Assembly (NCBI GenBank): GCA_008632985.1
Contig: QPGO01000178.1
Span: 124,001 to 147,687 of the forward strand
Direction: 5' to 3'
Origin: Psammoneis japonica
Lineage: Eukaryota
DNA length: 23,687 nt
A model generated the notes under the pieces. It saw only the letters and a program-made list of their open reading frames with translations. It ran no database searches and was not told the origin of the DNA. Within the stretch, counting starts at the first letter, position 1. Each line of letters opens with the position of its first letter. Shown piece by piece: positions 2,040-23,687 of the stretch. The position numbers and the translations under genes were made by a program.

Positions 2040-2191
2040 GTATAACGTAGCACCGCTTCTACGCAAGTAGTCTCGGAGGGAAAAGCACGACCCGACATCA
2101 TCAAAACACATGGAACCGCTGCCGCCGCAGCAACGATGAGACATGTCGCTTGTGCCGTCAACTGCAACTTCATGTGCGATGATGCCACATC

Positions 2192-3453
2192 ATGGACCCT
2201 CCTCCACTGCATCCAAGCATCCACTCAATTGGTGCGTTGGTGCATGTGGCTCCGGAGCACCGCACGGGATGACCCGACAGTGAAGGTGGAATCGGCTGCA
2301 TCACGGAATTCAACGCTGCCAATGGCCCAGTGCATGTGTGGCACGCAATCAACAACAGTCTCAGTTTTGACATTGTTGTTCCAGAGAGACTCACCCCAGC
2401 ATCATTGGCTGCAAGTGCTCATCGGCAATCACCAAATGAAACTTGACGGCCATTGACATTGATGACCAAACACAATGAACAAGCTGGACTCCGTGGCGTC
2501 AATGTTGGAAACACGAGAGCGACAGAAACACAACAAAGACCTGAAGGTGTTGCTGGCGCTCTTCTAAGTTTGAAAGATTGGCTGATGAGCGGTGGCAGGA
2601 GGAAGCATCCAGTGGTGGTGGAGCACCTCAGACAAGGTTGATCGAAGGAGAAAGGGTGGATGTGCCAGGCGGAGGCTGCAATTGCTGGCCGTCCGGCCCC
2701 AAAACCGAAATCTCATTTGTCGACACCGGAGAGAAGGCTGCTGTGTGACACCCAAAACACCGCAAATGCATTGACTCCATCTGAGATCCACACAGGGGCA
2801 AATCCCCTGGCTGATCATGCACGCACTTGGGGTGCAACAAAAAAAGACAATTGGCAGGACACACAAACGTGTTCTTGAGCAAAACAACAGTGCATTGAGG
2901 AAGAAGCAGCGTGATGCTGGTGTGACAGCATTCAACTCCGACGAAAAGTGGGAGCAGGTGTGTGCTCCACATGAATGCTTCAAGTGGCATCAAAGAATCT
3001 TGAACTCTGTTCATTGTGTTTGTAGTTGCTGTCCCAAGGGAACAATCGCCCGGTCATTTGTGCACCACAGTCAAGTGGTGAATGCCATTTTTCAGTGTGA
3101 TGGTTGGGGACAATTTTGCAAAGGATTCGCGATCGCTTCACTGTGGAATTCGGAAGTTTTTTCAGCATGTTTGCAACTCGGAAGAGACGCAGAATCCCAC
3201 CAGAGTCATGGAGGTGATTGAGCTCCTTGATCTGGTGGAACAGAATCTGTGGCACCCGACGCCAGATGTCATTGGGGACGGGCACAATCCGGCAGACTTC
3301 TTGAGTGAGAATGAGCTTTCAATGTTGGTGAACAACATGGGCCACTCGTGTGAACATGCTGAAGTGCATCTCATGGCAGAGCTGGAACAGAATTGGGAGC
3401 TGTTCGATGCCGCACACCTGGAGCAGTGCTGTTTTGGAAGGTGCTGTCTCTAG
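2192..3453 (+). pseudogene. Mariner-type transposase remnant (N-terminal and C-terminal parts, catalytic core apparently deleted)
   Basis: Frame from ATG 2192 (MDPPPL..DSEGGIG) with in-frame TGA at 2270, 2444 and 2639, and a frameshift in the A-run near 2840. It continues into an HTH-like WGATKKTIGR..RKKQRDAG segment, joined near 2990 to a C-terminal-like TIARSF..QVVNAI..LHCGIRK segment. No DDD/E triad seen. Lies inside the TIRs. Confidence 0.6.
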
Positions 3454-3643
3454 AGAATTGATGGCATGCACTTAGAACTGGCACCAGAGTGTCTGTGTTG
3501 TCCTGCCATTGCATCAAATTGGCACTTTGTTCCGTGGTCGGGCCAAAAGGAGCAATTCAATGGCAAACTCTAGAAGGTTTTGGTGGTGGCACGAAATGGC
3601 ACGTGAACAAAAACATGCAAAAGCAGCAAAAGCAGCACCACGT

Positions 3644-3701
3644 GGCCCAAAAAGAACAACACAGTGTTTCCTTGTGGACAATTGTCGCTTGCCAGAGGAA
3701 G
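3644..3701 (-). repeat. Right terminal inverted repeat
   Basis: ggcccaaaaagaacaacacagtgtttccttgtggacaattgtcgcttgccagaggaag; two of the 8 differences from the left TIR are isolated CpG transitions. Confidence 0.92.
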
Positions 3702-3949
3702 CATCATGGCAAAGCAAGAGTGCTGCACTGTGCCGCACACTCTGGCCAGTGACACACAAAATTGGCCACTTTCAGTTTCACGCGTGGAAGCACGGCAAAA
3801 GTTTTTCTGCTTCGGGCAGTGCATTTCAATCTGATCTGCTTCCGACATGCGCACACAAGCAACAGTGTCAAAACCTCATCACCAGCATTGTTTTGCACAC
3901 AAGTGCGAGCCATTTCTCATTTCATTCAGCTCCTGGCCACAAATTGTTT

Positions 3950-5870
3950 GTGGCTGATTTTCCAAGCTGCTGGCTGGAGTGCCGGTGCACTCATTTGTCT
4001 TTCCTCATCATTGACCAAAAAGCATCAACACTGACGCGATCTCTCTCACAATTGTGCATCATCAGACTGGCTCCTCTTGGACATGTGATCAAAGGTTTTC
4101 CTGCTTCAGTTCTCTCAGAAGAATCATTCTCAATGTCATCAACAAGCATCGGAAACACAATGTTCAAAAGCAGGGTCGTTGCTCATCTGCACACTCCCCT
4201 GGGCAATGCAGCTCCCATGGGTGTCAATGTCCACATTTCCACCAATGTTTGTGTCTGACAATTCCTTGCAGAGGCAAAATCATTCATTCCTGCCTCTGCA
4301 TCTCTGCTCCATCCTCAATCTGTCCATCCTCTGCCGCATCGTGCACACCTCTGGCGATGTTTTTTGCATCTCTCAACGGAGCTCCCAATTCTGATGCTGC
4401 GCCAATGCTTTCTGACCAAGGCTGTTGTTTTCCCAAATTCCATGACACTCACTTTCCATTTCTCTGAGTCACCTCCATTGTTTGGAGCAGCCAGGGCTGG
4501 CTCGCCTTGCATGTCACTCACTGCAAGATTGACCAAATTTGCTCCAACAACAAGGGCGGCACTGATGACAGCCAATGCGTTTCTTTCCTTTTGCACAATC
4601 CACCATGCAACAAGGAGAAAGCTGGTGAAAAATTTCCAGGAGTGCAGCAACAGATTGAAAATGCTTGCCAGCGGTGTTCCTCAAATGCCGTTTTTTGCTT
4701 CTGCTGGTTGCCCCCTGCAAAACAAGGAGCAATGAAAATTTTGATTTGTTCATCATGTTTTAGCGCACATGTTCAATGCATCATCCATGAACCAACCATG
4801 GTTCAGGATGGATTCAGAACTCTGTCACTCTTGTTCTCATTGTCTTGTTTGTGTGACTCGCTCCTTGTGTGACCATCAGGATCATCAGGCAAGGCACTCA
4901 AGACGAGCTTGAAATGCAATGAGTTGTTTCTTGCACCAGCAACCAATTGCAACAGTTCCATGTCTTGTGTCAGGATCAAGGAAGAGATTCTGAGAGTGTG
5001 CAAGTCTCTGCTCAAGGTGTTTGTGGATGCTCATGCATGAGAACAGAAACTCCACTGTCTCTGCCAATTTAATGCAGCAGCCCTCAAAGAGAAACCAAAA
5101 AAAAATGCGCCTTTTGTGTCATTCAGCCATCTTCCCTCCTCATGCTCTAAGGGACTCAACTGCAAACATTCTGATCACAAATCTGACAAGAACCCTTCCT
5201 CTGCTGGCAGATCACAACCCTTTTTACACAACAGCAAAATGGGGCTGCAACACTCAAGTTCAATGGACACACAACAAGAAGCAAAGTGCAGCAGCATCTT
5301 TCCTTCAATGTTGTGAGACCAAAAACATGTGGCTTTGTCATCATCATAAAAAAGCTTTTAGTTGCTGCCTTTTGTGCCTGTGTTTCAAACAATTTTGTTG
5401 GTGTTTCGTTGCTGTCCCTGTCATCATCACTGCGCTTGCTGCAAAGCTGGCTGCAGTGGCTGGCTCCACCAATTTGATCAGACCTGAACCATCCAACAAA
5501 GAATGCACCCATGCTTTGTCTTGAAGTCCAAACAAATGTGATGGACTGCCAAGGTTAGTGTTGGAATGTGTCAGACCAAAGAAGTGTGTGCTGCATTGCA
5601 AGTTTCGTGAAACAATGCCACACAAAAAAGGAGACGAGAGAGCATGGCATGCTCTTTGTTTTTTCTGCAGAAATGAGATCTTCCTCCATGTTCCAAGTTT
5701 TCCTTGATCCTTTTTCGGCATGTCATCCAGGAGGGTGTCTCTGACCTTCGTTTAAAAAACAATCCAGGACCCTCGCTTTCTTGCAATGACAGGAGGCACC
5801 GGGGTGAGGTGTTTGAGAAAGCACGTTCGTTTGTGCAGAGCATTTTTGAACCAGGCCTGCGGGGAGCATT
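3950..5870 (-). pseudogene. Degenerate hypothetical protein gene(s)
   Basis: Protein-like segments in shifting minus frames (SKRSDDDRDSNETPTKLFETQ; LSPLEHEEGRWLNDT; LAETVEFLFS..LEQRLA), downstream of a C/A-rich leader-like stretch at about 5900-6080. No family recognised; limits approximate. Confidence 0.3.
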
Positions 5871-6443
5871 GACCACTTGTCTGTTCGTGTGTCGTTGCAG
5901 GTTGGTGCTGCACGGTGTGAATGCAGGGCCCTGCTGTGCTTCGAAGTGCGTGCAGTTGGCAATGGTGTCGTGCCGGTGCATGCTCGTGTGCCATGCGGTG
6001 TGTGATGTTGTGTGGGCGGTGTGTGCATGGGTTGTGTCGGTGGATGGTCAGACGGTTGTGACGTTGTGACCGTTGTCAACTGCAGATGGCGCCGAGCATG
6101 GTGACGTGGATCGCCGTTGTGCCAGATGTTTCATGTCGAGTTTGGGGCAGTGCCGCAGAACATTTTTGCTCGTGATTGATCATTGTGTGATGCACATGGT
6201 TGCATGTTGAATGCAGATGCATTTCTGAAAAGCTGTCACGTTGGAGCCTGTTGCATCAAGCAAATCAGAGTCTGGATCTGGAAGGCAGTGTGACGTGTTT
6301 GCGTGTGGAACAGCACGATCGAGGGCATGCAGATCCTGCTGGGTTTTCATGGAACGTCGACACAGTTTGTTGTTGTTGGCGGCAGACAGAGAATCTTCTG
6401 CATTGGGTGCATTGTCATCATCGTAACTGTGTCCAGTTGCGCA

Positions 6444-6842
6444 ATGGCTCGCGTCAAGCAAACCGCACGCAAAAATGCCGGAGGTGTTGTCGGTCGTAAG
6501 AGGTTGCGTGGCAAAGCGGCGAAGGTTGATTCCAAGGCTGCCGGAAGGAAGAAACGTCATCGCTTCCGCCCCGGAGTCGTCGCGTTGCGTGAGATCCGGA
6601 AGCATCAGAAGTTGACGGAGTTGTTGATCCGGAAGGCACCGTTTCAGCGGCTTGTTTGTCAAGTGGCTGGTGAAGTGACGAGTGAATTGGGAATGCAGGG
6701 GGTGAGATTCCAGTTGACGGCCGTCTTGGTGTTGCAGGAGGCTTTGGAAGCGCATCTGATTGGATTGCTTCATGACAGCAATCTTTGCGCTGTCCATGCG
6801 GGGCGTGTGACCATCATGCCGAAGAATCTGATGTTGGCTTGA
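6444..6842 (+). pseudogene. H3: Divergent histone H3 variant, mutated (premature TGA at the R128 position)
   Basis: [67 protein letters not shown] matches the H3 tail and histone fold. Lesions: Y54H and Y99H (CAT at 6603 and 6753), S57L and S86L (TTG), R72C (TGT), R128* (TGA), R129C (TGC). Confidence 0.93.
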
Positions 6843-7201
6843 TGCACTCATGGCAAACATTGCCAGGCAGAAGAGAGAGGTTGGCGGCCTCTGGTTGTTG
6901 GGCAGCGAGGAGGGACTTCTTGCGTGGTTGAGACGCAGGGATGTTGTTGCGTGTTCGGATGCATTGCGCAGTGTTTAAGTTGGCGGTGTGCCAGATCAGA
7001 GTGTGTGTTTGTCATTTGTTGTGTGTGTTTTATGGTGTTGCAGTTCCAGCAGTTCTGGCATTAAAAAGTTGCATGGATCGTTGCCAAGCAATGTGCAGCA
7101 TTGTGCAGTTATGATGAATGGAGAAATGGATGTGCGCAGAGGTGCAGGGTGGGCCGCGGGCGCGGCAAGAGTCCTTTCCGCGCAATGTCCAGAGTGAGTT
7201 G

Positions 7202-8040
7202 TCAATCATCGCAGGCTTCGAGGGTGTCTGGGACGTCCTGCTTCACCGGACTTGCGCCGTTGGAGGCTTTCTGTTTGCCATCCTTGTCGTCTTCGACTGC
7301 GTGGCCAAACTCGTGAAGGGCGGTGTTGACTTTGTTTGGGCCACAGTGCAGTTCCATGGTTTCTCGATCGGTGCAAATGTCATCTTGGGTGCTGTCCGGG
7401 AAGCTGCATTGCATGACATCCATCGTGCAGGCGAGGGTGAGGTGGTTTCCAAGGTGAGCATCGCCTGGCCCGTTGACAGGAGTGAGGTCGGACCCGACGT
7501 CGCAGGGATTGTTCCACTTGAAATCTCTCTTGACAACTTCGTTCAGGACGTTGCAGAGGCGCATCACCCATTTCCTGCGTGGTTCTGGCATGTTCAACTT
7601 GGGGTCTTTCAGGACCCGGACCATGAGGGGCCAGGGCGTTTCACACACCTGGCTTGGATCGGATTTGGATTCGCTCTCTGCCGACCACACACAGATCGGG
7701 TTGCAGGCGCTGACGAGATTTTTTACGAAGTGAATGCCTGCAATCGACAAAATCTTGGTGGTCTTCAAGGCGTCCCACCATGGCTTGGCGAAAGGTGGCA
7801 TCGTGGTGGAACAGTTGCAACTGATGAGCCTTGCGATGATTTCTCCTGATCGAGTGCCGAAATGGTTGATGTGGTTTCTGCTTCTGGGTTTTTTTTGGTC
7901 GGAGATTCTTTGACGTCGGTGGCCACCTTGAAGTTCTGTCTGCGTTTGAGCGGCCTGTGGGTCGGCGTCTCACTCTCAGAAGGTGATTTCGATTTAGCAG
8001 CCGTTGACTTGGTGCTTCACTTCTTCGGATCGTTCGGCAT
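7202..8040 (-). pseudogene. Hypothetical protein with S/K/T-rich N-terminus and globular C-terminal domain
   Basis: ATG 8040 MPNDPKK*(TGA)STKSTAAKSKSPSESE..., then one frameshift into the 199-aa ORF 7202-7801 (FAKPWWDALK..KWVMRLCNVLNE) with protein-like composition. Family not recognised. Confidence 0.5.
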
Positions 8041-8127
8041 GGTGATGGTGGACGGGGCAGCATCGGGTGTGACTGTGGAAGCGGTGTTGCTGTGGCTTCT
8101 TTCGTTTTGTGGGAGGAGAAATGTGTG

Positions 8128-8772
8128 ATCGAAGAAGGGAGGGTTCGCAAATGGTGAGGAGGAGGCACAAATGGTTGCATGGGGTGGTTTGTCCAAAGTG
8201 CGGAGGATTTGGAAAAGAGGCAATTGCGTTGATCGTGACATGACTGGTTTGCAATGGGTGGTGGTTTGTCCGCAGGAGAGAGATTTCGCAATTTTGACAA
8301 TGGCTTGATTGGCTCACAAGGGGTGGTTCATCTGATGGAAGTTGGGTTTGCATGCATGGGGTTTTGCAAGGGGTGGGTTGTCTGATGAATGGAAGGTTCT
8401 CAAAGGATGCAGGGGCAATTGTGGTTTGTTTGAAGAACAAAAAAGGCATGTGTTGCTTCCAAGGCACAAATCTTGTGGTGTGTCCGAAGATCGGAGGGTT
8501 GGGCAAAAGTCGGTGAAAGGCACAAATGGGTCACAAGAGGTGGTTTGTCCGAAGAAGGGAGGGTTCGGAAATGAGGAAATTGTGATGACTCTGAAATGAC
8601 TGTTCGGCAAGATGTGGTTTGTCCGAAGAAGGGAGGGTTCGCAATTGAGTCAAAGGCACAATTGGTTTGTCGGGGTGGTTTGTCCGAACAATGATGGGTT
8701 CGCAATTGTGCAAGCAAAGGACAAGTGTCTTGCAAGGGGTGGTTTGTCCAAGGAACTGCAGGTTTTTCGCAA
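8128..8772. repeat. Degenerate tandem array, about 11 copies of core GGTGGTTTGTCCGAAGAAGGGAGGGTTCGCAA
   Basis: Cores at about 8130 (partial), 8183, 8260, 8322, 8372, 8421, 8475, 8539, 8614, 8674 and 8738; period about 48-77 bp. 8540-8567 and 8614-8641 are identical over 28 bp. Confidence 0.9.
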
Positions 8773-9072
8773 AAGAGTCATGGTCCACAATTGTTTTGCA
8801 GGGGGGGGTGTCTCGGCGGACAGCGCACCGGCAATTTTGTGCTGCACCTGCACAAGCACGGCAAATTTGCCGGGAACTGATTGTGTGTTGTCATGGTGCC
8901 GTGGGCCTTTACGGTGGTGCTGCAGGCACGGGCATGGTCGCACCGTTGGCAATTGGACTGGTGGCAATGTGGGTGTGTCGACACATGGGAGTGACAGTCA
9001 CAATGGCTGTCGAGTGGGGCAGGCACGTGTGGCGTTGTGTGTGGGTGGGACAAGACGCCTTGCCGGAGGTGC

Positions 9073-12000
9073 TCAGTTGGAATGCAGGCTGGCATTTCGC
9101 CAAGGTTTTTGCGCGCACAGCGGGAAAGACAGTGCAAAGTAAAACACGCAATGGTGAAAATAAAATGCAATTGTCACTGTGATTAAGGCGAAAATGTGTG
9201 TCCAGCTGAATTGGATTTGCCAATCACCCTTGTACGTTCCGTCGGGAGGTGCGGTGCAAACGAGCGAGTCGAGCCGTTGCCACTCGCCGTCCACTAAAAT
9301 TTTATGGTGGATTTTTTTCTTGGACGGAACTCGGCACATGTTGGGTGCCGCTTGCATTTGGTTTGCAACGAACACAAGGAACTCCCACTTGCAATCACTG
9401 CCTCTTGCCCGACCACAGCCACACTGTTCGACATGTGATTTTTCCATGTGTGTCCGCTTGAGTTCGCGTGGCTCCGACATGACATCATCGAACTGGGTGC
9501 AGATCGTGAGTTCATTGCCATTGTCATTGTAGCAGGACGTCCTGCCACACGTAAGAAACCAGCATCCAGGACCGTGTGAAAGGTTCTCGGAGACGAATGC
9601 CTCCAGTGCATGAGCGGGATTTGCCAGTCCGAACAGGGAGAAGAGCCGGATGAGGTCCATTGCCGTGAGGTGGCCCAATCCTTTCAATGTGCGACTTTGT
9701 ACGATGGTTCAATGAACCTTGTCAGCTGTTTTGGGCACTGTCTGGTTCCCGAATGCAAGGTCCGTAGCAGCTCCTCTGTGCAATTTCCCATGGCCTCGAT
9801 GACAGGTTTGTCTGTGCAAGATTGGACCGCCGGTGGTTGCGACGCGTGGTGGCGGGGGTGGGCACATCTTGGACGGCATCTGTCCCCCTTGCGGCTTGTT
9901 GGTTGTGTCAGTGAGAGTGGCTCGCCAAAGGACAGGCAGTGCAATTCCGCCGCACACAACATGCACAAATTGCGTTTGACACGGATGGCCGCGAAGAAGG
10001 CACCGGGTTGTCCGTTGAAGCGGTTCTCCATGAAATTGTGCAGGACGGTGAGGATCAGCCACTGCCCCGGACATTCGCGTGCAACGAAAAGGCACAAAAA
10101 CACCAAGTCCTTGGCAACCACCACTGTGGTGATGCATTCCGTGGTGTCGAGCCATTGGAGGAAGTGCAGGATGACGTCGACCGTGCTGGAGCAGTTCAGC
10201 ATTTTAGCAATGCGCTCCAAAAGGAAGCACGTGTGTGCCATCGTTCGGCCGTCGTGCTCTGCAAATGTCTGTCTGTCGGCGCACCACTTGCTCAGCCGTT
10301 CCATCGTTGCTTGGGTTGGTCCTTTGTCATCGCAATCAAACAGGTTGACGTCTGACCAAGTTTCGTCTGTGAGGGCAGCAAGGAAGTCTGTGCAGACGCC
10401 GCTGGCCGCAATGGATCTTTCCAAGCTCATTGCTCTGGAGCAGATGACTTGTTTGCTGCAGAACATTGCGCCGAGGTTGATGATTTGGGATCACATGCCT
10501 GCGTTGAGGAGGGTCTTCTGTTGTGCCTTGCTGAAATGATTGGACATTTCCACTTTCAGATTGAGTCCCGTGGAATGACAGCACTTGTCCGTGGAAGAAT
10601 CCCCGGCATCAAGGTGCAACCCCGTTAAGTCCGTGACGTGGAATTGCGTGGCGTGGTGTTTCATGCCGGTGATGTCTTCCGCATTCATCTTCTGGCGGAG
10701 ATGTTTCAGCATGAACTCTCGGTGTGGGCAGTGCGGAAAATGTTGCGACTCGTCACCATGGAAGATTGCCGACACGACAAAATCGCGTGCCATGGATGAC
10801 AGTTCCGCCATCTCTCTCAAAAATTCCTTGCTGAGATGCTCTGTTTTTCCGCCGACACCGGGAAACATCACACCTTCATGCTTGCACATGACTTGTGCTT
10901 GCTGGTCACTTGTCCCGACATTCAGTGACATCAAATTCCATTCGCAGTCCTTTTTGGCTGACTTGCAAAATTCGTCAAGGTGCAGGCGGATGATGCGGAA
11001 CAGTTTGGCACCGATGGGTTTCAGCAAATCGTGATGATTTGTTGCTGCAGGTTGGAGTGGATCGTTGGACGGAAAATGGTTCTTGTCGTTGCGCAGTGGG
11101 ATTGCTTCCTGATCGCACTCCTCTTCTAGCTTGGGGATTTTTGCAACGGGTCCCACACCGTGGTGCGTGATGTTGAGAAGTTTGCTGAGCGTTAAATTCA
11201 AGGGAGCGCATTGGACAGCGCAGATCTTGTCGACGTGTTTTTTTCGGAGGAACTTCCAAGCGAGGCAGCCTCATTTGAAGTGAAGCATGGAAGTTGCTTT
11301 TTGCAACTTGGGAGCAAAATGGAAGAGACACCAGTCGCACATGTCGTCCATGGTGCATCGCATTTCGTCCAGGGCGGTTTGTCGGAGTTCCATCATGGAA
11401 TCCCGCCAAGTCTGGTTTTCCCGGCAAGCTTCGAAGCGACGTTTGTTGTGCTGCGATTTCTTGGATCGTTGTTCGAGTTTCCATTTCTTGCGATCCAACT
11501 CATCTTGCAATTTCTTCGGAAGCCTCAAATCATCTGAACAGTTTGACAGATCGTCGTTGCAATCCGTGATGTCACAATCTTCTTCTCGGGAATTGTCATC
11601 GTCTTCACTGTCCTTTGGATCCGGCGGCAGTGCGAAGTTGTAGACGTGCTGTTTGTCTGCGTTTGGTCGTGATTGCCTTTCATTGTGGCAGATGAGGCAT
11701 CGACGCTTCTTGTCCGTAAGATCCTGACGAGTCATGCATGTTGGACACATCCATTTGCGTGTGACAGGAAGTTTCGAAGTTTCCTTGGGGTGCGTCGCTT
11801 TGTTTGGAACAATCTTGGTGATGTCAATGCCTTGCTTTTTTAATGAAGCAATCGCAAGTTTTTTCTTGCGGCATTTTGTCTTCTTGCATTGGCGTCCTTT
11901 GTTGACACAACATTTGCGAGTTGTGTGTCAGTGCTTCTCTTTGGGAGGCAGCAAGGATGGGTCGAACTTGGGGACTGGAGGACCGATGCCGTCCACGGAA

Positions 12001-12269
12001 GGGTTCAAATGCCATCCGTTCGTGTGCAAGGCCAGAGTCATTGGCATGGATGGAATGGGCAACAACCTGTGGATCAGAGGACTCGTGCCGTCCATGGAGG
12101 GTTTGAAGTGCCACTCGTTTGTGTGCGAGGCCGGTGTCATTGGCACGGGCGGAATGTGCAACATGCTCTTCGGGAATGGTTGCGTCGTCGCACTCCGAGT
12201 GAATTGCGAAAGGTGAGGCAACGGCGGCCATTTTGGCGCAAGGGGACACGGTCAAGGTGGGACTGGCAT
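9073..12269 (-). pseudogene. ~1000-aa protein: Pro-rich N-terminus, RanBP2-like zinc finger, acidic tract, possible 2OG-Fe(II) (TET/JBP-like) HxD region, C-terminal HhH-like motif
   Basis: Track ORFs 12252-12461, 11928-12221, 11271-11750, 10491-11201 and 9684-10466 share one frame, broken only by single TGA codons (12252, 11928, 11271, 10491). A frameshift near 9750 and TGA 9709 lead to ORF 9073-9687. Motifs: WMCPTC-x12-CLIC, TGLHLDAGDS, LKGLGHLTAMDLI. The gene is well supported; the domain calls are tentative. Confidence 0.7.
11989..12156. repeat. 99-bp-period in-frame duplication
   Basis: ccgtccacggaagggttcaaatgccatccgttcgtgtgcaaggcc at 11989 versus ccgtccatggagggtttgaagtgccactcgtttgtgtgcgaggcc at 12088. 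Encodes PMTPASHTNEWHFKPSMDG / PMTLALHTNGWHLNPSVDG on the minus strand. Confidence 0.9.
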
Positions 12270-13171
12270 TAAATTGTTGAACTCTCCGGCTTTCATGCGG
12301 TGCCCGTGTGACGTGTTTGCTCCAATTGCACTGGCATGGCATGTTTGAAATTGGTTTTGTGTGACAGGTGGTGTCGGAGTTGCGTTGTGTGGTTCTGTCT
12401 GGTTTGGATTCGGAGGGTGCTTGGGGTTTGGCGAGAGTTTGTGCTGTTGATGTTTGGGCATGGCAGGGTCAATGCGGTCAAGGCAACGGTGTGTGGCACC
12501 TCAACAGTTCCAAGTCATTGGTGTTGGTGGCGGAGGGTGGTGGAGGACACAAGAGGGGCAACGGATGCACGTGCATGTGGCGTCTCATGGCGTGGCATGT
12601 TGTTGCGGCGGGAATGTTCTGCGCGACATTGTGAGAGATGATGTCATCACAATGTTCACATGTAAATTGTCCCATGTGCATTGCAAAAGTGGAAATGCTT
12701 CACACAAAGGAGGTTGCAAGAAAAGTTCAGCATTTGCCCTGACAATGAATTTGCCAATCAAATTCGTTTTTGATGACATGCGAAGGGTGCATTTAAGGAA
12801 AAGACAAAAACCGAATCACAACTGTTGGTGTCGATTGTTTGGAAACTTGCTTTGTGTACGTGCAGTTTTCACTGCAGTTGCAGCAATTGTTGGGGGCAAC
12901 AAGACCATCATCAGGGCTTCTCTCTGTGTCTTGCTGCAGAAAATTGCACTTCATGGCAGCTGCTGCAGCAACCACTGCACAGCACCGGTGCTGCAGTGCT
13001 GTGGTGCGGTGTCGCATGCATCCGCTGCAGTTTGCAGCACAGACCAGCAAGTGACAAGTGCCACCGAGACAACTGTTTTTGTTGGCGTCTTCGTGACAAG
13101 TCATTGCTGTCTGCATTGCAGTGTGGTGGTGGCACTGTGTTACAACAGGTGGTTTGCAGTGCAGTGCAACA

Positions 13172-14026
13172 ATGGTTCGTGCGAGTCGCAAAGGGACCAC
13201 ACAAGAACTTCAAGAACCACATCCAGTTGGCAAGAATCGCCAACAAGACAATGCTCCGGCAAAGGTCATGAGGGCTTGTGAGGCATCTCGCAAATGCTTT
13301 CACAGACACAGCAGGGGCCTGCCTTGATTGCGTTGCAAGAAAGGAATGGCATTGAAGCGATTAAAAAGGAAAGCATCTGAGCAAGCGCAACATGCCACAA
13401 GTGGTGCAGATGGCACAGAATGTGATTTGTTCGAAGACTTTCGAGTTGATTGCACGCATCCGGAAAAGGTAAAAAAACACGGAAGTCATTGTCAATGGAC
13501 CTCAATGTTGCCTGTGGAGGTTGATGGTGTGTCACAGAAGGTCACCGTGAAACGACATGACAAGAACGCCACGCACAAGTTGTCCATTCTGTCCAAGAAG
13601 GGTGTCATGGAAGATCACATCTTGGCAAAGTCCCTTCCTGTGAAGGACGTCATTGATGGTGACGCCCTTCACATGGTGGTTGCATTGCATTGTTTTGAAA
13701 AGGGCAGCACTGTGGGAGTGCACGTCGGAAAAGAACGGAGCGTGAACGCTTCTGAGTTGGAAAAAGCCTCGGTGCGTGTCCAAAAACGGCGCCGGCACTT
13801 TTTGAAACAGAAGGTGGTCGGAGATGTTGTGACAGGAATTGATGCCGTAGGAGGCGTTGCATCTGGACGTCCCTTGCACCTTGGAGTGCATCTTGTCAAC
13901 GACCCTGCTTTGTCTGGCGGGAAAGCGAGCAAAGCGAACTGTGAAGTAAAGACGGATGGCACCGTTGTCACTGCGAAAAGAGTCCATCCGGGACAAGAGT
14001 TGCTTTTCCATTGTGATTGGCAGTGA
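13172..14026 (+). pseudogene. SET-domain protein (putative lysine methyltransferase), mutated
   Basis: ATG 13172, in-frame TGA 13325. SET-like motifs VVAL..FEKGSTVGVHVG (F.KG..IG.Y.G), LHLGVHLVND..KANC, and VVTAKRVHPGQELLFHCD (A.K.I.PG.EL..DY), with the expected tyrosines read as H or C. Confidence 0.75.
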
Positions 14027-14029
14027 ACA

Positions 14030-14685
14030 TGTTTTAAATTAAAGTGTGGTTGCAACATCACACAGTGTGGCAATTGGCGCTCCCGCCCACAAAAAGGACA
14101 ACTTGGAGGTCCTTGAGAACTTCGCATCCAATGGCAGAGACAGCTTTGGTGGAAAGCATGAAGGCACACATGAGGCACAGCCACTTTGCAGTTGTCGTTG
14201 TCGTCCTTTTCAAAAGGCATTCTGCACAAGCAGCATTCTTTGCCAGCAGCTCCCATGGTTGTCGGAAGGTCGCTGAAGCGCCGATCTTCACAGACAATGC
14301 GTTTGATGCAATGAAGTTTGCTTGGATGAGTCTTCTTGCAAGGATCACATCGGTTGATGGGGGGGATTCTCCGGAGACGCCTTGGTTCCGAAGTGTCAAT
14401 TGGAGTGCGTTTGTTGCATGGAACCCAAGCATCTTCCTTGCAATCAACCCACCTTGTTTTTGTCCTCACGTTGTCTTTCCTGAATGCCTTGGGTCCTTGC
14501 AGTGCTTCAGCTTCGTGTTTGATTTTTGCATTTCCGTGTTCTGCCAGGATCATTTTTCTGATGGGAGGCCGTTGAGACTTGAACGAAGCATGTTTGGTGG
14601 CAGCCCAATGGACACGCTGCAGACGCGTTCCAGCCCCAGGTGGGAGCTCGTAGTGCTGACGTGTGACAACAATGATTTTTGTCAT
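14030..14685 (-). pseudogene. RING-H2 finger protein (putative E3 ligase), convergent with the SET gene
   Basis: CCLC-x19-CLHAFHQSCLCHW..SCPFC at about 14088-14235 fits C3H2C3 spacing. The track ORF's extension to 13669 is probably read-through antisense to the SET gene after loss of the stop codon. Start and end approximate. Confidence 0.75.
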
Positions 14686-15377
14686 AGTCGCATGTTTCGT
14701 ACGCAGATTTCCACGTGTGACATTTAAAAAAATTGTCCAGACTCGCTGTTTTGCGAAGCCCCAGACGTTTCACATGACAAATTTGTAGAAACAACAATGC
14801 GCTAGTTGCATTCTTCAATGTCTGAAGAATGTGACTGGCCAAGTAAAAAATGATGCACTTCAATCATGTGCAAGTTTGTGCGTTCGCAAAATTGCCTCAT
14901 TTTCTGTTGGCGATCATTGACATTTTAATTGCCGCACAATTTTGCTGCGGAGCTCGCACGCAGAAGTCTGCAGGCCCAATGTCACACGGATTCCCACCTG
15001 CATCTGGAACGCGTCTGCATCTCTGCCTTTCGTTTCTTTTGTTGTTCTTTTTTTTTAAGCCGTTCCTGCTGCATGATGTCAGAACACGGAGTGGAACTTG
15101 ACTCCCCGTCAGTTGTTGTCGTTTCACGACGTTGTGACGATGCTGTCATGTTGATGTGTCACAAGAAAGTGCAGCAGTCAGTGAGAGGTTTTAGGGTTGG
15201 TGGCACTGTCATCCGTTCTTGTGCTTCCTGTCAGTGCGCTGCCATTGTGGAGTTGTGTCCGTCAAATGAGTTGGGGTGTCGTGAATGGGTGCACGTCCAT
15301 TTTGTGCGGTTCATCAGTCTTCGTCTGGGAGTCATCCGGCGGCAAAATGATGCTGGCAAGGAGTGCGCGAACAGGCG

Positions 15378-15655
15378 CTGTGACTGCATCACTGGAGGAC
15401 AACTGCAGCCATTGTCCAATTGGCTTCATGTGAGTTTTACATCCGAGTGTGGTGCAATCAAACTTGGATTGTGTGCCATTGTCACCATGAGGAGAGCCCG
15501 CTCTCTGCCAGTGCCACAGCGCTGTAGAGAGTGGGCACTGTGACTGTGCGTGCAGCATCACTGGAGCACAACAATTGCAGCCGTCACACTGTTGGCTTCA
15601 CATTGGTTTTAGCCATCCAGAGGGCTGACTCAAATTGGTTTGTGCTGTGTCGTCA
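15378..15655. repeat. Degenerate direct duplication, about 169-bp period
   Basis: gcatcactggag..tgcagcc..ttggcttca..gtttta..catcc..tcaaa..ttgg occurs from 15386 and again from 15555. Confidence 0.7.
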
Positions 15656-16142
15656 ACTGGCCAGCACTGCTTTGCTGCACTTGCAGTGCTGCATGTTTCT
15701 GATGTGAACGCTTCCAACTTGGCCGTTATTTTGCGTGCTTCATTTGTTCAAAGTGCACCGTTGTGATCTTCAATGCCGTCATAGGATCATTGTTGCGTAA
15801 GCCACAATGTGGCACATGTCAGCTCAGTGCTGCAATGCAATTTACAATGTTCAACACAAACAATTCTTGTGCTGTTTTTGTCTCTTCCTTAAATGCACCC
15901 TTCTCGCATCATCAAAAACGATTTTGATTGGCCGGTTCATTTGTTAAAATGTCTGTCGGGACGGCACTGTGCCAAGACAATCGAATCAACAAAGTTTGTT
16001 CATAGCACGCATGTCTAAATGTCTCGAGTTGTGCTTTGACAACTTGGTGAATTTGCCAAATTATGGAGGGTGTCATTCAGTGCTGTGTTGTGGTTGTGTG
16101 TCGAGCTGCACAACATTGTTTCACGCATCGTCCACAATGTTG

Positions 16143-19100
16143 TCAATTGCTCTGTTCTGTCAATTGTCTGCAACGATGGCAAGCTTTGTTCATGTCCCAA
16201 CTGTCCTTTTTCCAGTTGTGGTCTTTCGATTGACTGAAGCCAGCAAAAAATGCTTCTGCAGATGTGTCAGGCTTCAGATCTGACACACGCTGAATGGATT
16301 CCCATTTTTGCATTTCAAAGCAACCTGTCAAAAGCAATTGCCTGTTTTCTGGCAATTTAACTCTGCTGCTTCCCACATGCAGTTTGGCACAAGTGCAGTT
16401 GGCGACTTGTCGATGTGACATTGCGAGTGTCTCATGGTCCAAAGTCTGTCCCTTGGCTTTGTTCGCGGTCACGGCGAATCCCATCTCTAAAGGAAATCAA
16501 GGCGCAACGATGCATTGCGATGGAAGACATCCTGGTCCACCCGGAATCGGAACGGGTTTCGGTTCCTTGGTTCGCATTGGAGAAACCGGCATCACCACCT
16601 CCCTTTTTACGATGGATTTGTCTCTCAGCAATCGCAATGTTTCACTGTCAAAATCTTCGGGATCCAGTTTGATGTTTGCCATGATGGGTGGCTCGGACAG
16701 TGTGACGACGGTGCCAGCCGCACCATTCTGCTCAGTGTAAAAGTCGACGAGGTCCACGTCATGTGGATTGCCGATCGTCAAAGAATGGCACTTGAACTTT
16801 CTCCCGTTTGCCATCTTGAGATGTGCGTCAATCTTGCTGGCAATGCACCCGGGACCACCAGCAACAAAGTGCTCATGGAATGCCATGTCCTCCATGGCCT
16901 GTGCTTCACAAGCCTGGGCAGGTTTCTGTTCCCATTTTGTTGGTTTGGCAGCCAACCATCGAAAGACAACGGCACCTGTGTGCCTTGCAAATCAAACCGC
17001 TGCCTCGTGGTTCAACGTGTGACGTTCATGATTGGCAATGACAATTGTCGGAGCCGTCAACCATGGACTGTTTGGCTTTGCAAAATCGTCTTCCAAGAGC
17101 AATGGAATCGATTTGCAGCAATCAGGATCAATCCGTTCATGATGATGGAATTTGGACAACAGCTCCGTGTGACGTGGATCCTCACAGCGCAGTTGTTGTT
17201 CGAATTCGATCCATTTGACCGATGCGAATGTCTCACACCCAACGCGACATGGAGAACCTTCTTGCAATCGTGCCTTCTGCTCTTTGGTCCACTTCTTCGC
17301 TCTTTTGTTGCTGCGAACCTTGCCCGCTCTCTTCCATTTGTTCCTGTTGCCCGTGGAGAGGAGTGTTCACCCGGATGTTTCCAACATTTCTGCATCTCGA
17401 ACCCAATTCTGTCTTTCCCTTTCCATTTCTTGATGGTGTTTGTAAGCCGCCACTTCCATTGAGGCACTGGTTGACGAAGGTCCAGCCACAATCGGTCCAT
17501 TTTGGTCCAGATCCCCAGCAAATGAGACAGGAATGCCTCCAAAAGGCGTGCCGATGTTTCCAGTGAATTGCTGCAAAGTCCAGCTCAATTGTGCAAGATG
17601 CCACAGAGCCTGATTTCCGACTTCGTCTACAAAGAGCAATGTTGGATCCTTCAACAACGACTTCAATTCGTTCAATTGATTTGCGGTGAGATCAACCAAC
17701 TCTTTCATTCTCATTGCCGTGTTTTGGCCCAGAAAGATCAAACAAGCTGTTGACGGTCCGCCGATGTCAATCGCGTTTGTCCCATTGAAAGCCGTCCAAG
17801 GAATGTTCCTGGATTCAAGAATGGACAGATCAACAGCATTTTTGAGACAAAGGCTTTTGCCTGTGCCTGCCGCACCGTGCACCAACACCATTGCCGGCAC
17901 ACTGTTGTCGGGATCTTCAGGTGCTTTTGCGCATGCCGAATGAAGGTTGAACACTTCCCAGTGTGCAGGCGCAAACAATTCCTCTCGGCTTTTCATCGTC
18001 TTCTTTGTCGCTTCGTGCTCCGTGTTCCGCTTTCCAGGCATTGTGCCAAGGCCACCTTCAGTCGATGGGTGTTTGACAGAAGTGTTTGTGTTGTTGTCCG
18101 GCTTGCAATCTCTTGTGTCTTTGCTCATTTTCTGACACCATTTGATTGAGTCGTCTGCGGTGTCATTGTGAAACACCAGTGACTTGTTCCAGCTGTTGTG
18201 GTGCATGGGAACAAGTCAGGCGTTGTGGTTGCCACGCCAAGGGTTCGTGGTGTGACACACAGACACCATGTTGCGTCCGTCTTCCAATGCTTGCAGGATG
18301 CTCTGGTGACTCTTCTCTGACAGCTTGCGATTGACGGTTTCGAACACCATCTCATCAGTTTCGTTTTGCTCTCGGTTTTTTAAACATTGTTCGATTGCAA
18401 AATCCGTGGACCATCGTTGCTTTTGTTCTTCGGCCCAAAGCATCCGATTGCGTCCACGACACTGAGCCAGCATCCACTCATTTAAAAAGCTCATGTGAAG
18501 CCCTTGCATTCCAGTGTGCATGGCAAAGAGTCTCATTTTAGACACGACAGACTGGTCGGTTCGCAGTTCTTCCATCCATTTCGCTGATGCAGCCCAATCA
18601 TGTTCACAACGGTTCACGTGAGATGACTCATGGCATTCCGTTTCTGGACGGCACTCACACAAATGGAATCATGCAAACTTGTTGGCTTTTGCTTTCCACT
18701 GGCGGCATTGCATGCTGGTGCGAAGTTCATCACACGGTTCCTTGCCCGGATGGGGGGGGATGTTTTTCTGTCAAGATGACCATCTTCTGCTTCTTGTCCA
18801 GCACTTGAGCACACTGACTTGCGACAGGAAAACTCGGCGCAAAGGCAAAATTTTCGTCTGTGGTCCTCCCTTCTCCTTGACGGACACGAACGCTTTGCAC
18901 TTGTTGCGGTTCAACATGCGCAGCTCTGTGCCACGATTCCCGCAAAACGCAGCTTTCGGAATCAGATGTTTTGTTTCCAAAGTGTCGCCATTGGGTGGCT
19001 TCTCTTTCAACGTGAACAAACGGACGGTGCCCAGATTTGCCTGCATCAAATCGTCTTCATTGCACTGATCCGCGTCATCTTCCTTTTTGTCTTCCGCATC

Positions 19101-22100
19101 TTCTGCCGATTCCTTCTTGTCTCCTTCTGTCTCATCTTCTTCATCACTGTCTTCACACCCGTCGCACGAATCGTCAATGAACATGCTGTCTTCCAAGTCG
19201 CGTCTCTCTCTTTGTTCCAACAGCCGTTCAAACAGTCATTCCATGCGCTGTTTGCCATCTTCCTCCATTTGGATTAGAGTGCTGTGAGCCCGGTCGCAAG
19301 CCGGATTGCTGCAAACAAATTTCTCCAAAGCAATGATGCTCGGCAGACCCAGCAAGTCGGCACACATCTGGCAATCGGACAACTCCATTTGCAAGTTCAT
19401 CTTGTTCATCACACGTTGGAGGACTTGTTTCACACTGCGTCCGGAGGTTCCTGCATTGTCTGCCTTGCTGGCACACTGCTTGGCATGACTGATGGCTTCT
19501 CGAAACAACACTGCGCAATGTTGCAAGGGATGCTTGCATTTGCCCATGCACAGGCATGTGTAGAAGATGGCTCCTTTCGCTTGTCCAGTGCTTCCCAACA
19601 ACTGACAGTTGTCATGAGAGCCGGTGCAGCAGGAGATGACGACATTGAACATGGAAACATTGCCATTGCCCTCCTTTGCAAAGTCGAGGAGTTCCAAACA
19701 AAATTCAGTCAGCTTCTCCTCCATCAGTTTGTCGAGAGCCATCCACAAAGATTCACGATTACGACACGTGTCCGAGACGCCATCTCGCAACGATGCCAGC
19801 ATTTCATCTTTGGACATTTCTCCACCATTCAACCGACACTCAATGTCATCCAATTGCACACGCGGTCTTTTTGTCTCCCACACTGTCACAGAATCTTCCA
19901 TCTTTCTTTCCAAAATGTCGATGGTCTCGTGCCGTTCTGGTTCGTCGTTCCATTCCATCTCTTCTGCATCACACAGATTGCAGTCTTCCTTTTCTTCTTT
20001 TTGCACCACACCTGCTGTTTGACTTTCCTCAGCCCGACTGCCATCGTCTTCTTCTCTTTCAAGCACCTCTTTCTTTGGCACCAAACGCACTGCTCCCAGT
20101 CTCTTCTACAAGGCCGGCTGGTTGGGACAAGCGACACCACTGCTGCCCATTGCACCTTGTGGCAAGTCAGCATGTGATCGTGCATTTGTTGTTGGCCTCC
20201 TTGCCCAGAAGTTTTTTCTTGCACTCGTTCATGCTGCACGTGTCCTTCTGGTTCCATCACTTCTAACAGATGCAATCTTTCTGGCAACGGATTTCGATTC
20301 ACCCGGTCCAAGACATTCTTTGGAAACCGCAATCGTCTCTCTTCTTTTCGACAATGGCTGGCATGCCACCAATCGAAAAGCACTGGCCTCGGCAAAGAGG
20401 ATTGATGCATTCGATCCAGTGTCTCTGACAACGCTTTGCAAACTTCCTTCAAATGCGCAAAATGCTGCATTGCATGTGAAACAACAGGTGGCAATGCAGA
20501 GTTCCTTTTTTGTGATCTTCCACAACAGCAATGTGCCCAAGACAATGGCCAAAAATGCCCTTGTTTGTGATTTAAAAATGTCAAGTCTTTCGACGTGACT
20601 CACTCATGTGTCGAGAAAAGAAGTTGTCCAGCGGCATTCCCAAAAGCAATGCACAGACATCGTTGATCAACGACTGACTCTCTGCCACAAACGCGACGGG
20701 GTCTTCAATTCCTTTAGAGGCACTGTCCTGTCTGGACAAACCAGGCAAATCGATGACTCCTGCGCCAACTTCCGCAGATGCACATCTCATGTTCTCCATG
20801 AACTCTTCTCCACCACGACCGCACCCCGAACTCTCATCAAAGACCACCCAGAAATGTCTTGTTGTTGACAGTTCGGAAAGTCGTCCGAATGGCATGAGGA
20901 TTCCCACAGTCGTCAAATGACAATGTCATGAAACAAGACGGAAGGCCCATTCTTTTTGACATTTCAAGAGTCATCGATGTCAACTTGCTGGATTCATTGC
21001 AGCCATGTGACGTGTCCTTTCCCATGGGTCGAAGATGTCCCAGATGTTTCTGCTGAAAGTCTTTTGCTGCTTTTCCACCCGGATTTGCCACCACTTCATC
21101 AAGCTTCTTCAATTCGGTTTCGTCTCTGAGCAGGCTTCTGATCATTGCAGCAGACTGTTTGCTGTTTCGGACGTGAGAATTCACTTGAAAAATTGCTTCG
21201 AACCGTTTCTTGCTGTCGAAACAGCAAGCCAACAACCTCCTGTCCAACGAAGGCACTCAAGTGAACTGTCGCAAAAGATGGTTTCGTTCAATGTAGTTCA
21301 GTTTTCCCAGTGCTTTGTCGCACATGCGTCCAAACATGAACCCGTTGGGGAATGTGGTCGCCACCTCAAAATCACTTGCAGCAAATTCATTGATCGGATC
21401 ACTCTCCCGGCAGCTGTCACACATTCCATCTCTCTCGGTGGGAAGCGACGGCATTGACATGTCATCGTAATCATCGCATGGTTTTATGTCATCCAAAGGA
21501 GAGTGGTCTTCCACGGCATCATTGTCTTTGTCACTTTCCAACATGACATCCTCCTTTTCACTGTCATGAACGTTTGCAGGGTCAGGCTTGCAATCTGAAT
21601 CTGCCAAACACTTTCCGTCTGCATCCTCGCCCTCTTTCCTGCTTGACGATTCCGACTCTGATGCGGAACTTCTGGAATCGTTGTTGCCGCTGCTGCCGAC
21701 AGACCAATCAGAATCATCAGAATGTTCCCCATCGCTTTTAGCACTCACGTTCTCTTCTGCTTTTTGTCCCTTGTGCCGACATGCTGACTGTTTAAAAGAT
21801 CGAAGACAAGCCATTCTCATTGTGATTTCATCTTGATGAGTTGATCCCGCACTGTCCACAATGCAGAAAAATCTCATGCTGTCACTGGGTTTTTGTGTCT
21901 CCACTTCGTCCCGTTCTTCTTCATCGGCATTGTCAGTGTTCAAAATTTCTTCCGATTGTGCTTTTGCAACATCAGAGCCGATGGCATCTTCATCTTGTAA
22001 AATGGCTTTGTCCTTCACGCGACAAGCTGAATCTTTTGTGTGCTGCACAGCGATGCCTGCATTGTGCTGCACTTTGGCACAAGAAACGCCAATGGAGCAA

Positions 22101-23687
22101 TTGCCTTTTCCCCACAAAATGGCATTTAACGCCGTTGCCCATCCACACAGATTCCAAGCACGTCCAAAAATGTCATTGCGTCCGAAAGCTTCCTTTGCCA
22201 GTGTGTCAAATCTGCCTTCAGGGTCCAAGAAACAGAGCCGTGACACCGACTTCATAAAATTAGGATGAAACATGTCTTTCACACTCAAAATCTCTCGGAT
22301 CGTTTCTGGAGCATCATGGGCGAACAAAATGCAATTGCACTTCAAACAGCTGTGATCGAAATTTACATGGCCACGGCGATTCGAGGAAATCTTGATCGTC
22401 GATGCAAACAACCAATTGCGTGATAAAATGAGCTGTTCATGCAAGTTCAATGGCTCCAAATCCAACCGTCTGAAATCCCCGCGGCTGTTGACAGTTTTGG
22501 TTGTTCGGCCTTTTCTTCTAAACACTCATGGCACGTGGGACACAAGTGAGTGAACTCCTTTCCGGCATCATCTGTGTCTGCCAATTCCAGATGAAGATGG
22601 CGCCATTCACCAACAGATTCTTGGGACTCGTACATGGAGTGCCCTTTTTTCAAATCAATCGTTTTGAATTTGCCATTTCCATCTGCCAGAATTGCCACAT
22701 GACCCAACTGTTTCTGCCATTCCAACTTCTGCAAGTCTTTGTCCGCACAAAATCGCAAGGGCCCCAAGATTCCATTCTTCAACCACACCCTGGTGCACTT
22801 GATTTTGGGTTCCGCAGGTCTTTCCAACATCCGAATCCCGCATGCTCCACAAGCAATCATGCACCCGTTCATGTGTGTGAATGACACAGATTCCTCACTC
22901 ATTCCCTCTTTCGAAATGTCACTCACAATTCTCTTGACATCCACCTCTTTTCCGTCACATTTCTTGTCATGTTCTCCATGACGATCAAACTGAAGACAGC
23001 CTGAATTTACATGATGCAACACAACCTCAGAACATCTTTGTCGAAATGCTCAAAGAAACCATCGTCTTCAGGATGTTCTTCCATTTCTTGCAATTTTTCC
23101 ATCAAAAATGCTTCAGACACGTGGTCCGAATCCAAGCCTCGAATCTCCTTTTCGGCTTCATTTAATTCATCCTGTCGTCATTGCAATGCCTGCACGGCTT
23201 CACGTTGCAATCTCTCCTGATGTTCCTCCTCCGACTCCTTGCTTCGCAGATCTGTTTTGTGTGCGCTCCCGTTGCAACCTCTCCTCACGTTGGTCCTCTG
23301 ACTCCGTGTTCCGCCGGTTCGCGCTTTCTGCGCCGCCTCTCGTTGCAGCCTTTCCCGATGTTCGACCTCCGACTCTTTTCTCTGCCAATCCGCTTTGTGT
23401 GCCGCCTCCCATTGCAGCCTCTCCTCATGTTTGTCCTCCGACTCTGTGTTCTGCCGGTCCGCTTTCTGCACCGCTTCTCGTTGCAGCCTCACCCGACGTT
23501 GGACCTCCGACTCTTTGTGGAGCTGACCCGATTTGTGTGCCACCTCCCGTCGCAGCCTCTCCTCACGTTGGTCCTCCGATTCTGTGTTTTGCCGGTCCGC
23601 TTTCTGCGCCGCCTTGCATTGCAGCCTTTTCCAACGCTGGACCTCCGACTCTTTGTGGAGTCGATCCGTTTTCTGTGCCGCCTCCTG
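16143..23687 (-). pseudogene. Helitron RepHel transposase (HUH Rep plus PIF1 helicase), 5'-incomplete, broken by stops and frameshifts
   Basis: N to C: charged 23-aa repeats; Cys motifs CGACG and CPTC..PKLSTAAG..LEPLNLHEQLILSR (DUF6570-like); Rep motif 1 GLPSCFMTLSFDD (about 20910-20950), DPVAFV; motif 2 KGIFG..VVEDHKKGTLHCHLL (HUH at 20488-20496); motif 3 AKGAIFYTCLCMGK (about 19540-19580); PIF1 GAAGTGKS (about 17851-17875), LLFVDE, PFGGIPVSFAGDLDQ, QQLRCED, FPLEMGFAVTANKAKGQTLD, LHVGSSRV. Confidence 0.93.
23190..23687 (-). repeat. Coding tandem repeat, 69-bp (23-aa) unit with 138-bp periodicity, in the RepHel N-terminus
   Basis: ESEVQRRVRLQREAVQKADRQNT / ESEDKHEERLQWEAAHKADWQRK; ggacctccgactctttgtgg at 23501 and 23639. 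About 7 units, continuing past the window edge. Confidence 0.92.

Follow-up and report, generated by a model that had tools for sequence, protein, structure and literature searches.

Loss of TpA graded by sequence context across a block of mobile-element DNA

Most of the DNA analysed here, a stretch of 23,687 nucleotides (nt) that we call the window (contig QPGO01000178.1, positions 124,001 to 147,687, deposited under Psammoneis japonica), belongs to a block that has lost the dinucleotide TpA. The depleted, TpG- and CpA-enriched block runs from position 2071 of the window to 23687 and continues past the window end, while positions 1 to 2070 hold an unmutated flank, namely, a fragment of a glycosyl hydrolase family 35 gene on the minus strand with its AT-rich upstream region. 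The block is at least 21.6 kb of mobile-element DNA in which about nine in ten TA have been turned into TG or CA, and how strongly TA is lost depends on the base that follows the A on its 3' side, in the order T > C >= G > A. Our reading is a context-graded hypermutation of TpA at the level of the DNA, to which we assign a probability of about 70%. Support for it, shown here, comes from the polarity of the changes, from hits on both strands and from copies that differ from one another, as well as from the sharpness of the boundary and the gradient in context.

The block contains only 103 TA in 21,617 nt, corresponding to a rho value for TA of 0.077 compared to 0.53 in the flank. The loss is restricted to TA and is offset by TG and CA, since AA+TT (rho of 1.26 in the block and 1.16 in the flank) and AT (0.92 and 1.15) are not depleted while CA+TG rises to 1.57 (1.20 in the flank); the values for CG are 0.73 and 0.97. 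The ratio of observed to expected TA (o/e) in 1-kb intervals is 0.46 to 0.56 in the first 2 kb and 0.01 to 0.19 from about position 2070 to the end. By the cluster cut-offs taken from the main text of a preprint on Bigelowiella natans (rho TA <= 0.43 and rho CA+TG >= 1.52 in 1-kb intervals), 17 of the 23 intervals pass on both counts, with none in the first 2 kb and a longest run of 5; counted from position 2001 on, these are 17 of the 21 whole intervals. The flank, whose open reading frame (ORF) at 555 to 1490 on the minus strand matches the Pfam family Glyco_hydro_35 (E = 4.9e-42), is the sole unmutated baseline from the same genome and offers 77 TA in 2,070 nt. Its final TA lie at 2041 to 2068, and the next TA is not found until 2565. 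Among the contigs of sequencing run X1, a unique contig spans 1508 to 2055 without any difference from the window and ends at 2055, and the contigs of repeat DNA start at 2086 to 2095. Together with the last TA of the flank at 2068, these contig ends place the onset of depletion where repeated DNA begins.

The direction of the changes can be read from a gene inside the block. The minus-strand frame at 16194 to 19967, interrupted by 7 in-frame stops, encodes in 1,258 codons the C-terminal part of a large mobile-element protein that has a PIF1-like helicase. It has 1,242 relatives at E <= 1e-3, and a tblastn search with relatives P0001 to P0005 against the frame gave single high-scoring segment pairs with E values from 1e-89 to 1e-123. 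Tyrosine is nearly missing from the frame (3 Tyr, compared with 48 Cys and 45 His, of 1,258 residues). We defined conserved Tyr columns as those with Tyr in at least 50% of at least 15 aligned relatives, and at the 15 such columns the window has Cys in 6, His in 5, and Tyr, Phe, Ile and Arg in one each. As controls in the same alignment, Trp was retained in 13 of 13 columns and Gly in 28 of 29. An alignment of five relatives gave a similar result, with its 21 Tyr columns being Cys in 8, His in 5, Phe in 4, other residues in 4 and Tyr in none. TA is the ancestral state, and the changes from TA to TG and from TA to CA occurred in DNA. The finding of both Cys and His in place of Tyr within one ORF shows that both DNA strands were hit, and this, along with the non-coding targets, argues against editing of an RNA intermediate. 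One conserved Tyr column of the frame, column 1226, has Arg (CGT), which needs changes at both bases of the TA; such an outcome is unexpected for a strictly TA-dependent process because the first hit removes the TA.

Copies of the same DNA also carry different changes. At its edge, the block contains an element with multiple copies (2095 to 3701), for which many contigs with 80 to 99% likeness lie over 2095 to 3500. The X1 contigs differ from the window by 1,376 transitions and 229 transversions, and of the 40 differences listed, out of 1,614, 8 are sites at which other copies over 2095 to 3500 retain a TA that is TG or CA in the window. Nothing from a further run, X3, aligned to the window. 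At site 2183/2184, the window has TG and other copies have CA. That copies differ from each other at TA, TG and CA sites indicates that they were mutated independently and in place.

The pattern among the surviving TA is confirmed and is not due to chance. Classified by their neighbors (Y, pyrimidine; R, purine), the 21 TA in 2101 to 8000 are 13 YTAR (5 TTAG, 4 TTAA, 2 CTAA and 2 CTAG), 4 RTAR, 4 YTAY and 0 RTAY, exactly as a hand tally in the first-pass annotation of this region had it, while the 77 TA of the flank divide into 10, 31, 10 and 26 in the same order. In Monte Carlo tests, the survivors of this region differ from the flank (contingency test, p = 5e-5), from a uniform split (p = 6e-4) and from the in-domain first-order Markov expectation (p = 0.003). 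The survivors in 8001 to 23686 (36 YTAR, 27 RTAR, 14 YTAY and 5 RTAY) likewise differ from the flank (p = 5e-5) and are indistinguishable in their classes from those in 2101 to 8000 (p = 0.31). The difference was robust to each subset of the flank that we tried, and it persists (46, 27, 18 and 4) when a high-copy insertion resembling a miniature inverted-repeat transposable element (MITE), at 14620 to 15017, is removed from the block. The expectation of that annotation that the NTAN contexts of the survivors would be unlike those of background TA is therefore borne out, with the 77 TA of the flank as the background.

When the o/e in the block is divided by that in the flank, the class order YTAR > mixed > RTAY holds for all ten strand-symmetrised NTAN words. 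The YTAR words have the highest ratios (TTAA, 1.0; CTAG, 0.38; CTAA/TTAG, 0.36), followed by the mixed words (GTAA/TTAC, 0.23; ATAA/TTAT, 0.11; CTAC/GTAG, 0.08; ATAG/CTAT, 0.064) and the RTAY words (GTAC, 0.095; ATAC/GTAT, 0; ATAT, 0). The proposal that TAY is hit and YTAR is spared was correct in its direction and in the order of the classes, but it was too coarse: the loss is a gradient in which TTAA is the only truly spared word, the other YTAR words being down by about 60% relative to the flank, and an equally strong effect of the second base was missed.

Since each TA presents an A on either strand, every site was scored as two half-sites, so that the 103 survivors give 206. The base 3' of the A in these half-sites is A in 50.5%, C in 22.3%, G in 20.9% and T in 6.3%, compared to 22, 28, 17.5 and 32.5% in the flank and about 31, 24, 22 and 22.5% in in-domain AA and GA controls. 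A survival model for both strands, with the flank as its baseline, gave a cumulative loss per half-site of 2.56 (2.05 to 3.56) with T at the +1 position, 1.44 (1.01 to 2.06) with C, 0.92 (0.32 to 1.52) with G and 0.16 (-0.73 to 0.48) with A. The ratio between pyrimidines and purines was 3.7 (2.1 to 17), with C and G not separable from each other.

The effect of the +2 base is equally strong, and TAYY is nearly gone. TACC, TACT, TATC and TATT together make up 7 of the 206 half-sites of survivors, compared with 65 for TAAA, 23 for TACA and 19 for TACG. Sites with a TAYY half-site account for 7 of the 103 survivors and 36 of 76 TA in the flank (p = 3e-10), while those in TTTA/TAAA account for 58 of 103 and 4 of 77 (p = 8e-14). 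Protection of TACG by CpG methylation was considered and rejected, as TACA survives equally and TACC and TACT do not; a purine as opposed to a pyrimidine at +2 accounts for this pattern.

The survivors alone cannot separate an influence of the base at +1 of the A from one at -2 because TA is self-complementary, and this distinction is made by the products. Pooled over both strands, a pyrimidine follows TG in the block in 57.9% of cases and follows AG, CG or GG in 48.2% (odds ratio of 1.48; p = 4e-23), and no such effect is seen in the flank (45.0% after TG and 45.9% after other G). A purine before TG is barely more common in the block (48.8% versus 46.4%; odds ratio of 1.10). The enriched product classes are TGY and RCA; relative to the in-domain control, TG stands at 1.43 to 1.46 before CC, CT or TC and at 0.56 to 0.58 before AA or AG. 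The enrichment among products places the deciding bases 3' of the mutated A, equivalent to 5' of a mutated T, and agrees with the first-pass annotation in describing the target as the A of TAY.

Several of our results weigh against this interpretation or weaken it. When the in-domain Markov baseline is used in place of the flank, the direction is the same and the contrast is weaker, with A at +1 at 1.6 of expectation, C and G both near 0.95 and T at 0.28. Context was judged against only 77 TA from 2,070 nt of a gene and its promoter, which may misrepresent the ancestral mobile elements. The decay of CpG also produces TG and CA, which dilutes the product test: in 19 of the 40 listed differences between copies, other copies have CG where the window has TG or CA. 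The outcomes at Tyr codons, which supply the sole polarised events of known context, do not sort by the rule. Where a pyrimidine precedes the codon, Cys and His stand at 4:4, and where a purine precedes it, at 4:1; the outcomes by context are mixed with 153 relatives as well, although these numbers are small and the neighboring bases may have changed over time.

On our reading, hypermutation in situ turns TpA into TpG or CpA (an A:T to G:C change that can fall on either strand) throughout a block of mobile or foreign DNA and halts within about 30 nt of the neighboring single-copy gene. The susceptibility of a site is set by the first two bases on the 3' side of the target A or, seen from the T on the opposite strand, by the two on its 5' side, with the order T > C >= G > A at +1 and a further contribution from a pyrimidine at +2, making T-A-Y-Y hot and T-A-A-A (T-T-T-A on the other strand) cold. 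A TA survives only when both of its half-sites are cold, and for this reason survivors accumulate as YTAR, chiefly in TTTA/TAAA.

For the chemistry, we tentatively favor an adenine deaminase acting on DNA, which would convert A to inosine that is read as G, over a modification of thymine, at odds that we put somewhat below even. The competing chemistry would leave the A untouched: the T of R-R-T-A would be modified or oxidized by an enzyme, for example one of the TET/JBP type that acts from 5-hydroxymethyluracil to 5-formyluracil, and would mispair with G to give a change from T to C. We consider this unlikely as the cause, while the sequence itself holds no evidence against it. The contexts of both survivors and products are symmetric with respect to the strands, an A in TAYY being a T in RRTA on the other strand, and the statement in the first-pass annotation that sequence alone is unable to separate deamination of A from modification of T is accurate. 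Thymine hydroxylation in some protists is reported to favor TpA. A literature search that combined 5-hydroxymethyluracil, dinoflagellates and TpA found no paper. In the main text of the B. natans preprint, the preference for deamination comes only by way of an ADAT2 homologue.

The contexts of the survivors could instead go back to what the elements were composed of ancestrally, or to TA re-created later by ordinary G:C to A:T mutation, with no preference of the mutator involved. The small flank baseline, which is of a different sequence class, leaves room for the former, and the 4,264 TG and CA in the block are a possible source for the latter. Several observations speak against this explanation. 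Copies of the edge element keep TA at ATAT, GTAC and CTAC sites that have been lost from the window, meaning that hot contexts once existed; 14 of the 15 conserved Tyr codons (TAY) are gone; and the products mirror the survivors, with TG before CC, CT or TC being enriched and TG before AA or AG being reduced. In addition, only 5.8% of TG precede AA, yet TAAA makes up 31.6% of the half-sites of survivors. We regard this explanation as improbable in either form.

Error-prone repair synthesis by polymerase eta, triggered by deamination of 5-methylcytosine (5mC) in methylated repeats, was suggested as a lead in the first-pass annotation. The signature motif of this polymerase is WA (W, A or T), with A to G changes at TA and AA. 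CpG has indeed decayed in the block (rho of 0.73 versus 0.97), and copies differ at CG versus TG or CA. An erosion of AA would be expected along with that of TA, whereas AA+TT is undepleted (1.26 in the block versus 1.16 in the flank), and the loss of TA is equally deep where CpG is intact (11071 to 12570). This lead can be given very little weight.

Even less weight goes to A-to-I editing of RNA, of the ADAR or ADAT type, fixed by reverse transcription. In its favor, ADAR usually prefers a U on the 5' side of the edited A. A table in a review lists 5'UAG for ADAR1/2 (PMC10661471). Against it, both strands are hit within one ORF (Cys in 6 and His in 5 of the conserved Tyr columns); non-coding repeats, the MITE-like insertion and the helicase gene are affected alike, with copies differing in situ; and no reverse transcriptase is found among the 123 ORFs scanned. 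The context does not fit either, in that TAG is not the hottest (G at +1 is neutral, at 20.9% versus baselines of 17.5 to 22%) and TAT is the most depleted.

An artefact in which silent chromatin carries a modified base at TA that sequencing misreads, with the depletion being in the reads and not in the DNA, is about as implausible, for although a palindromic modified site read from either strand could imitate a mixture of TG and CA and the library type of the runs is not on record, TA is normal in the flank and at 8 sites of the MITE-like insertion within the block, the X1 contigs differ from the window at fixed sites and are hence no mere copy of it, and none of the 8 listed full-share differences in 6825 to 14057 restores a TA.

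In addition to the loss of TA, parts of the block show decay of CpG, with CG o/e values from 0.36 to 0.91 and the lowest value at 3571 to 5070, compared to 0.97 in the flank. Most differences between copies and alleles are of CG against TG or CA, and the alternations between TG and CA in internal repeats also fall at CpG-type columns and are uninformative about TA. The two losses do not follow one another, as seen at 11071 to 12570, where CG o/e is 0.91 and TA o/e is 0.07. The decay suggests the presence of 5mC and of 5mC-marked silent chromatin in the block, and such chromatin is a candidate for the mark by which the block might be recognized. At 4169 to 5502, 12173 to 12839 and 16175 to 18842, the summed contig depth is 53 to 77, near that of the unique flank contig (57.6), and TA is equally depleted. 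Present-day repetition may therefore not be required for depletion, although depth is no measure of copy number.

The phenomenon adds another case to a kind that was described only very recently. Hypermutation of TpA in integrated viral and foreign DNA has been reported in B. natans (Mettrop et al., bioRxiv 10.64898/2026.01.13.699255), where the de novo mutations of mutation-accumulation lines in two viral regions integrated in the genome fell almost exclusively on TpA (to TpG or CpA), with 231 de novo TpA events, and 124 clusters depleted of TpA and enriched in CpA+TpG were found, with an ADAT2 homologue as the candidate enzyme. No other report of TpA to TpG/CpA hypermutation was found in our literature search. 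To judge from that main text, the two cases share the exclusive change from TpA to TpG or CpA, clusters of TpA depletion and CpA/TpG enrichment in 1-kb intervals, targets that are foreign or transposon-like and largely unannotatable, and an adjoining ordinary genome that is untouched. They differ in that the block is near saturation (rho of 0.077 versus 0.45 in the region of nucleocytoplasmic large DNA virus origin in B. natans) and in that its contents here are a DUF6570/PIF1 element, a histone H3 pseudogene and a MITE-like insertion, without recognizable viral genes. The main text of the preprint gives no base context beyond the dinucleotide, and judged against it, the four-base rule is new as far as we have seen.

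A comparison can also be made with fungal repeat-induced point mutation (RIP), which shares with our case the domain-wide and dinucleotide-specific transitions on both strands of repeated or foreign DNA and the sharp edge next to a normal gene. The polarity is the opposite. RIP changes CpA to TpA (C to T), raises the AT content and creates stop codons, whereas here TpA is destroyed, GC rises, the stops TAA and TAG vanish, and Tyr codons are lost. The block accordingly lacks the signature of RIP, an excess of TpA with a deficit of CpA/TpG, as its rho values are 0.077 for TA and 1.57 for CA+TG.

Of the known adenosine deaminases, TadA and ADAT2-ADAT3, like ADAR, make an A to I change that reads as A to G, and a 5' T or U suits both families. 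Their natural substrates are RNA, while the target proposed here is DNA. For TadA/ADAT2, the review table gives 5'ACG as the preferred motif, and for ADAR1/2, 5'UAG (PMC10661471). In the block, survival of TACG and TAG is no lower than baseline, and TAT and TAYY are hot instead; with G neutral and T most depleted at +1, the context is not of the ADAR type. The first-pass annotation had pointed to TadA, and this lead fails on context because TACG is not preferentially lost, making up 19 of the 206 half-sites of survivors (9.2%); the share is 4.8% for the in-domain baseline and 9.9% for the flank. A rule with T-A-Y-Y hot and T-A-A-A cold is not known to match any characterized adenosine deaminase and could conceivably point to an undescribed family of deaminases or of thymine-modifying enzymes.

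The remaining features of the window are mostly remnants of mobile elements. The edge element is associated with an inverted repeat of 58 nt (86% complementary) between flank sequence at 1982 to 2039 and the right end of the element at 3644 to 3701. The inner arm lies 1.6 kb into the block and differs from the outer arm mainly by CG to TG/CA changes, and an X1 contig connects 2039 with 3528 on opposite strands. A histone H3-like pseudogene is found on the plus strand at 6444 to 6842 (Pfam Histone, E = 5.1e-27; H3.1 in the PDB, E = 2.3e-42). Its tail and fold are recognizable, it has a 5-residue insertion and an early TGA in place of the C-terminal 'RRIRGERA', and both conserved Tyr ('...IRKYQKS...' and '...EAYLVGL...') are His (CAT). 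It may derive from a host gene that was captured, or the foreign element may have carried it. There is a degenerate tandem array with units of about 61 to 75 nt at 8119 to 8777 and another with 69-nt units at the window end (23188 to 23687), whose copies differ mainly at CG versus TG/CA.

The MITE-like insertion of about 400 nt has 26-nt terminal inverted repeats (14+9 nt) without mismatches at the specified bases on both strands. Its summed contig depth is 18,598 to 47,031, compared to about 60 to 140 around it, with loose ends at 14622 and 15015, and a metagenome scan with the pattern of its terminal repeats returned 0 stretches. It holds 8 TA and is less depleted than its surroundings (TA o/e, 0.28; CG o/e, 1.03), and judging from this composition, it is younger or less exposed than they are, though nothing else in the window is repeated as often. 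A 366-aa frame at 13672 to 14769 on the minus strand has a weak match to zf-RING_2 (E = 1e-4) below the Pfam cut-off.

The helicase gene probably has its N-terminal part at 21260 to 22525 on the minus strand, a 422-aa ORF with a DUF6570 match (E = 0.0055) that lies below the curated cut-off and with no match at E <= 1e-5 among proteins of 232 to 739 aa. Full-length relatives of 2,000 to 2,900 aa have DUF6570 at the N terminus and PIF1 at the C terminus, as exemplified by P0010 (2,372 aa) and P0012 (2,435 aa), with a C-terminal PIF1/AAA_30 helicase. A scan of viral contigs with the helicase ORF confirmed no relative. In the Pfam results for the window and the three relatives scanned, no Rep/Helitron_like_N, the HUH endonuclease domain that a Helitron-like element joins to its PIF1-like helicase, is listed, while PIF1 is present and DUF6570 is weak in the window and clear in the relatives; we did not file the element as a Helitron because no Rep domain was seen.

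Strand asymmetries are also present in the block. Between 6001 and 13000, there is a strong skew of G over C and of T over A, with TG well above CA on the plus strand (128 versus 71 in 8001 to 9000), and the skew, which is too large for TA loss alone, flips past about 18.5 kb. The skew between TG and CA varies along the block and does not track the orientation of the helicase gene. As many as 85 stop-free frames of at least 120 aa are found in the block because TAA and TAG are nearly gone. A Pfam scan of 123 ORFs gave matches for few of them, and most of these frames are not genes; Rfam gave 0 matches at the gathering score across the window. For annotation, this means that such blocks yield dozens of long false ORFs, since TAA and TAG are gone, while real genes show Cys or His in place of Tyr.

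In conclusion, the four-base rule provides a concrete fingerprint of the mutator, with TAYY hot, TAAA cold and the deciding bases 3' of the A, and it argues against the specificity of a TadA-like (ACG) or ADAR-like (UAG) enzyme. It can be checked against the de novo events in B. natans, and it supplies oligonucleotide substrates for candidate deaminases and thymine-modifying enzymes. Were the window from B. natans, it would be one of the 124 clusters found there; if the window does not come from that species, the system is wider than the single species reported. It is conceivable, although we hold it to be rather unlikely as a full account, that the system is a mirror image of RIP, in which a eukaryotic defence enzyme acts on duplex DNA, flips the A or T of TpA and reads about two further bases. 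If this is true, the erasure of TA would strip mobile elements of every Tyr codon, including those for the catalytic Tyr of HUH and tyrosine recombinases, and TATA and AATAAA signals would be lost as well, all without the creation of new stop codons.

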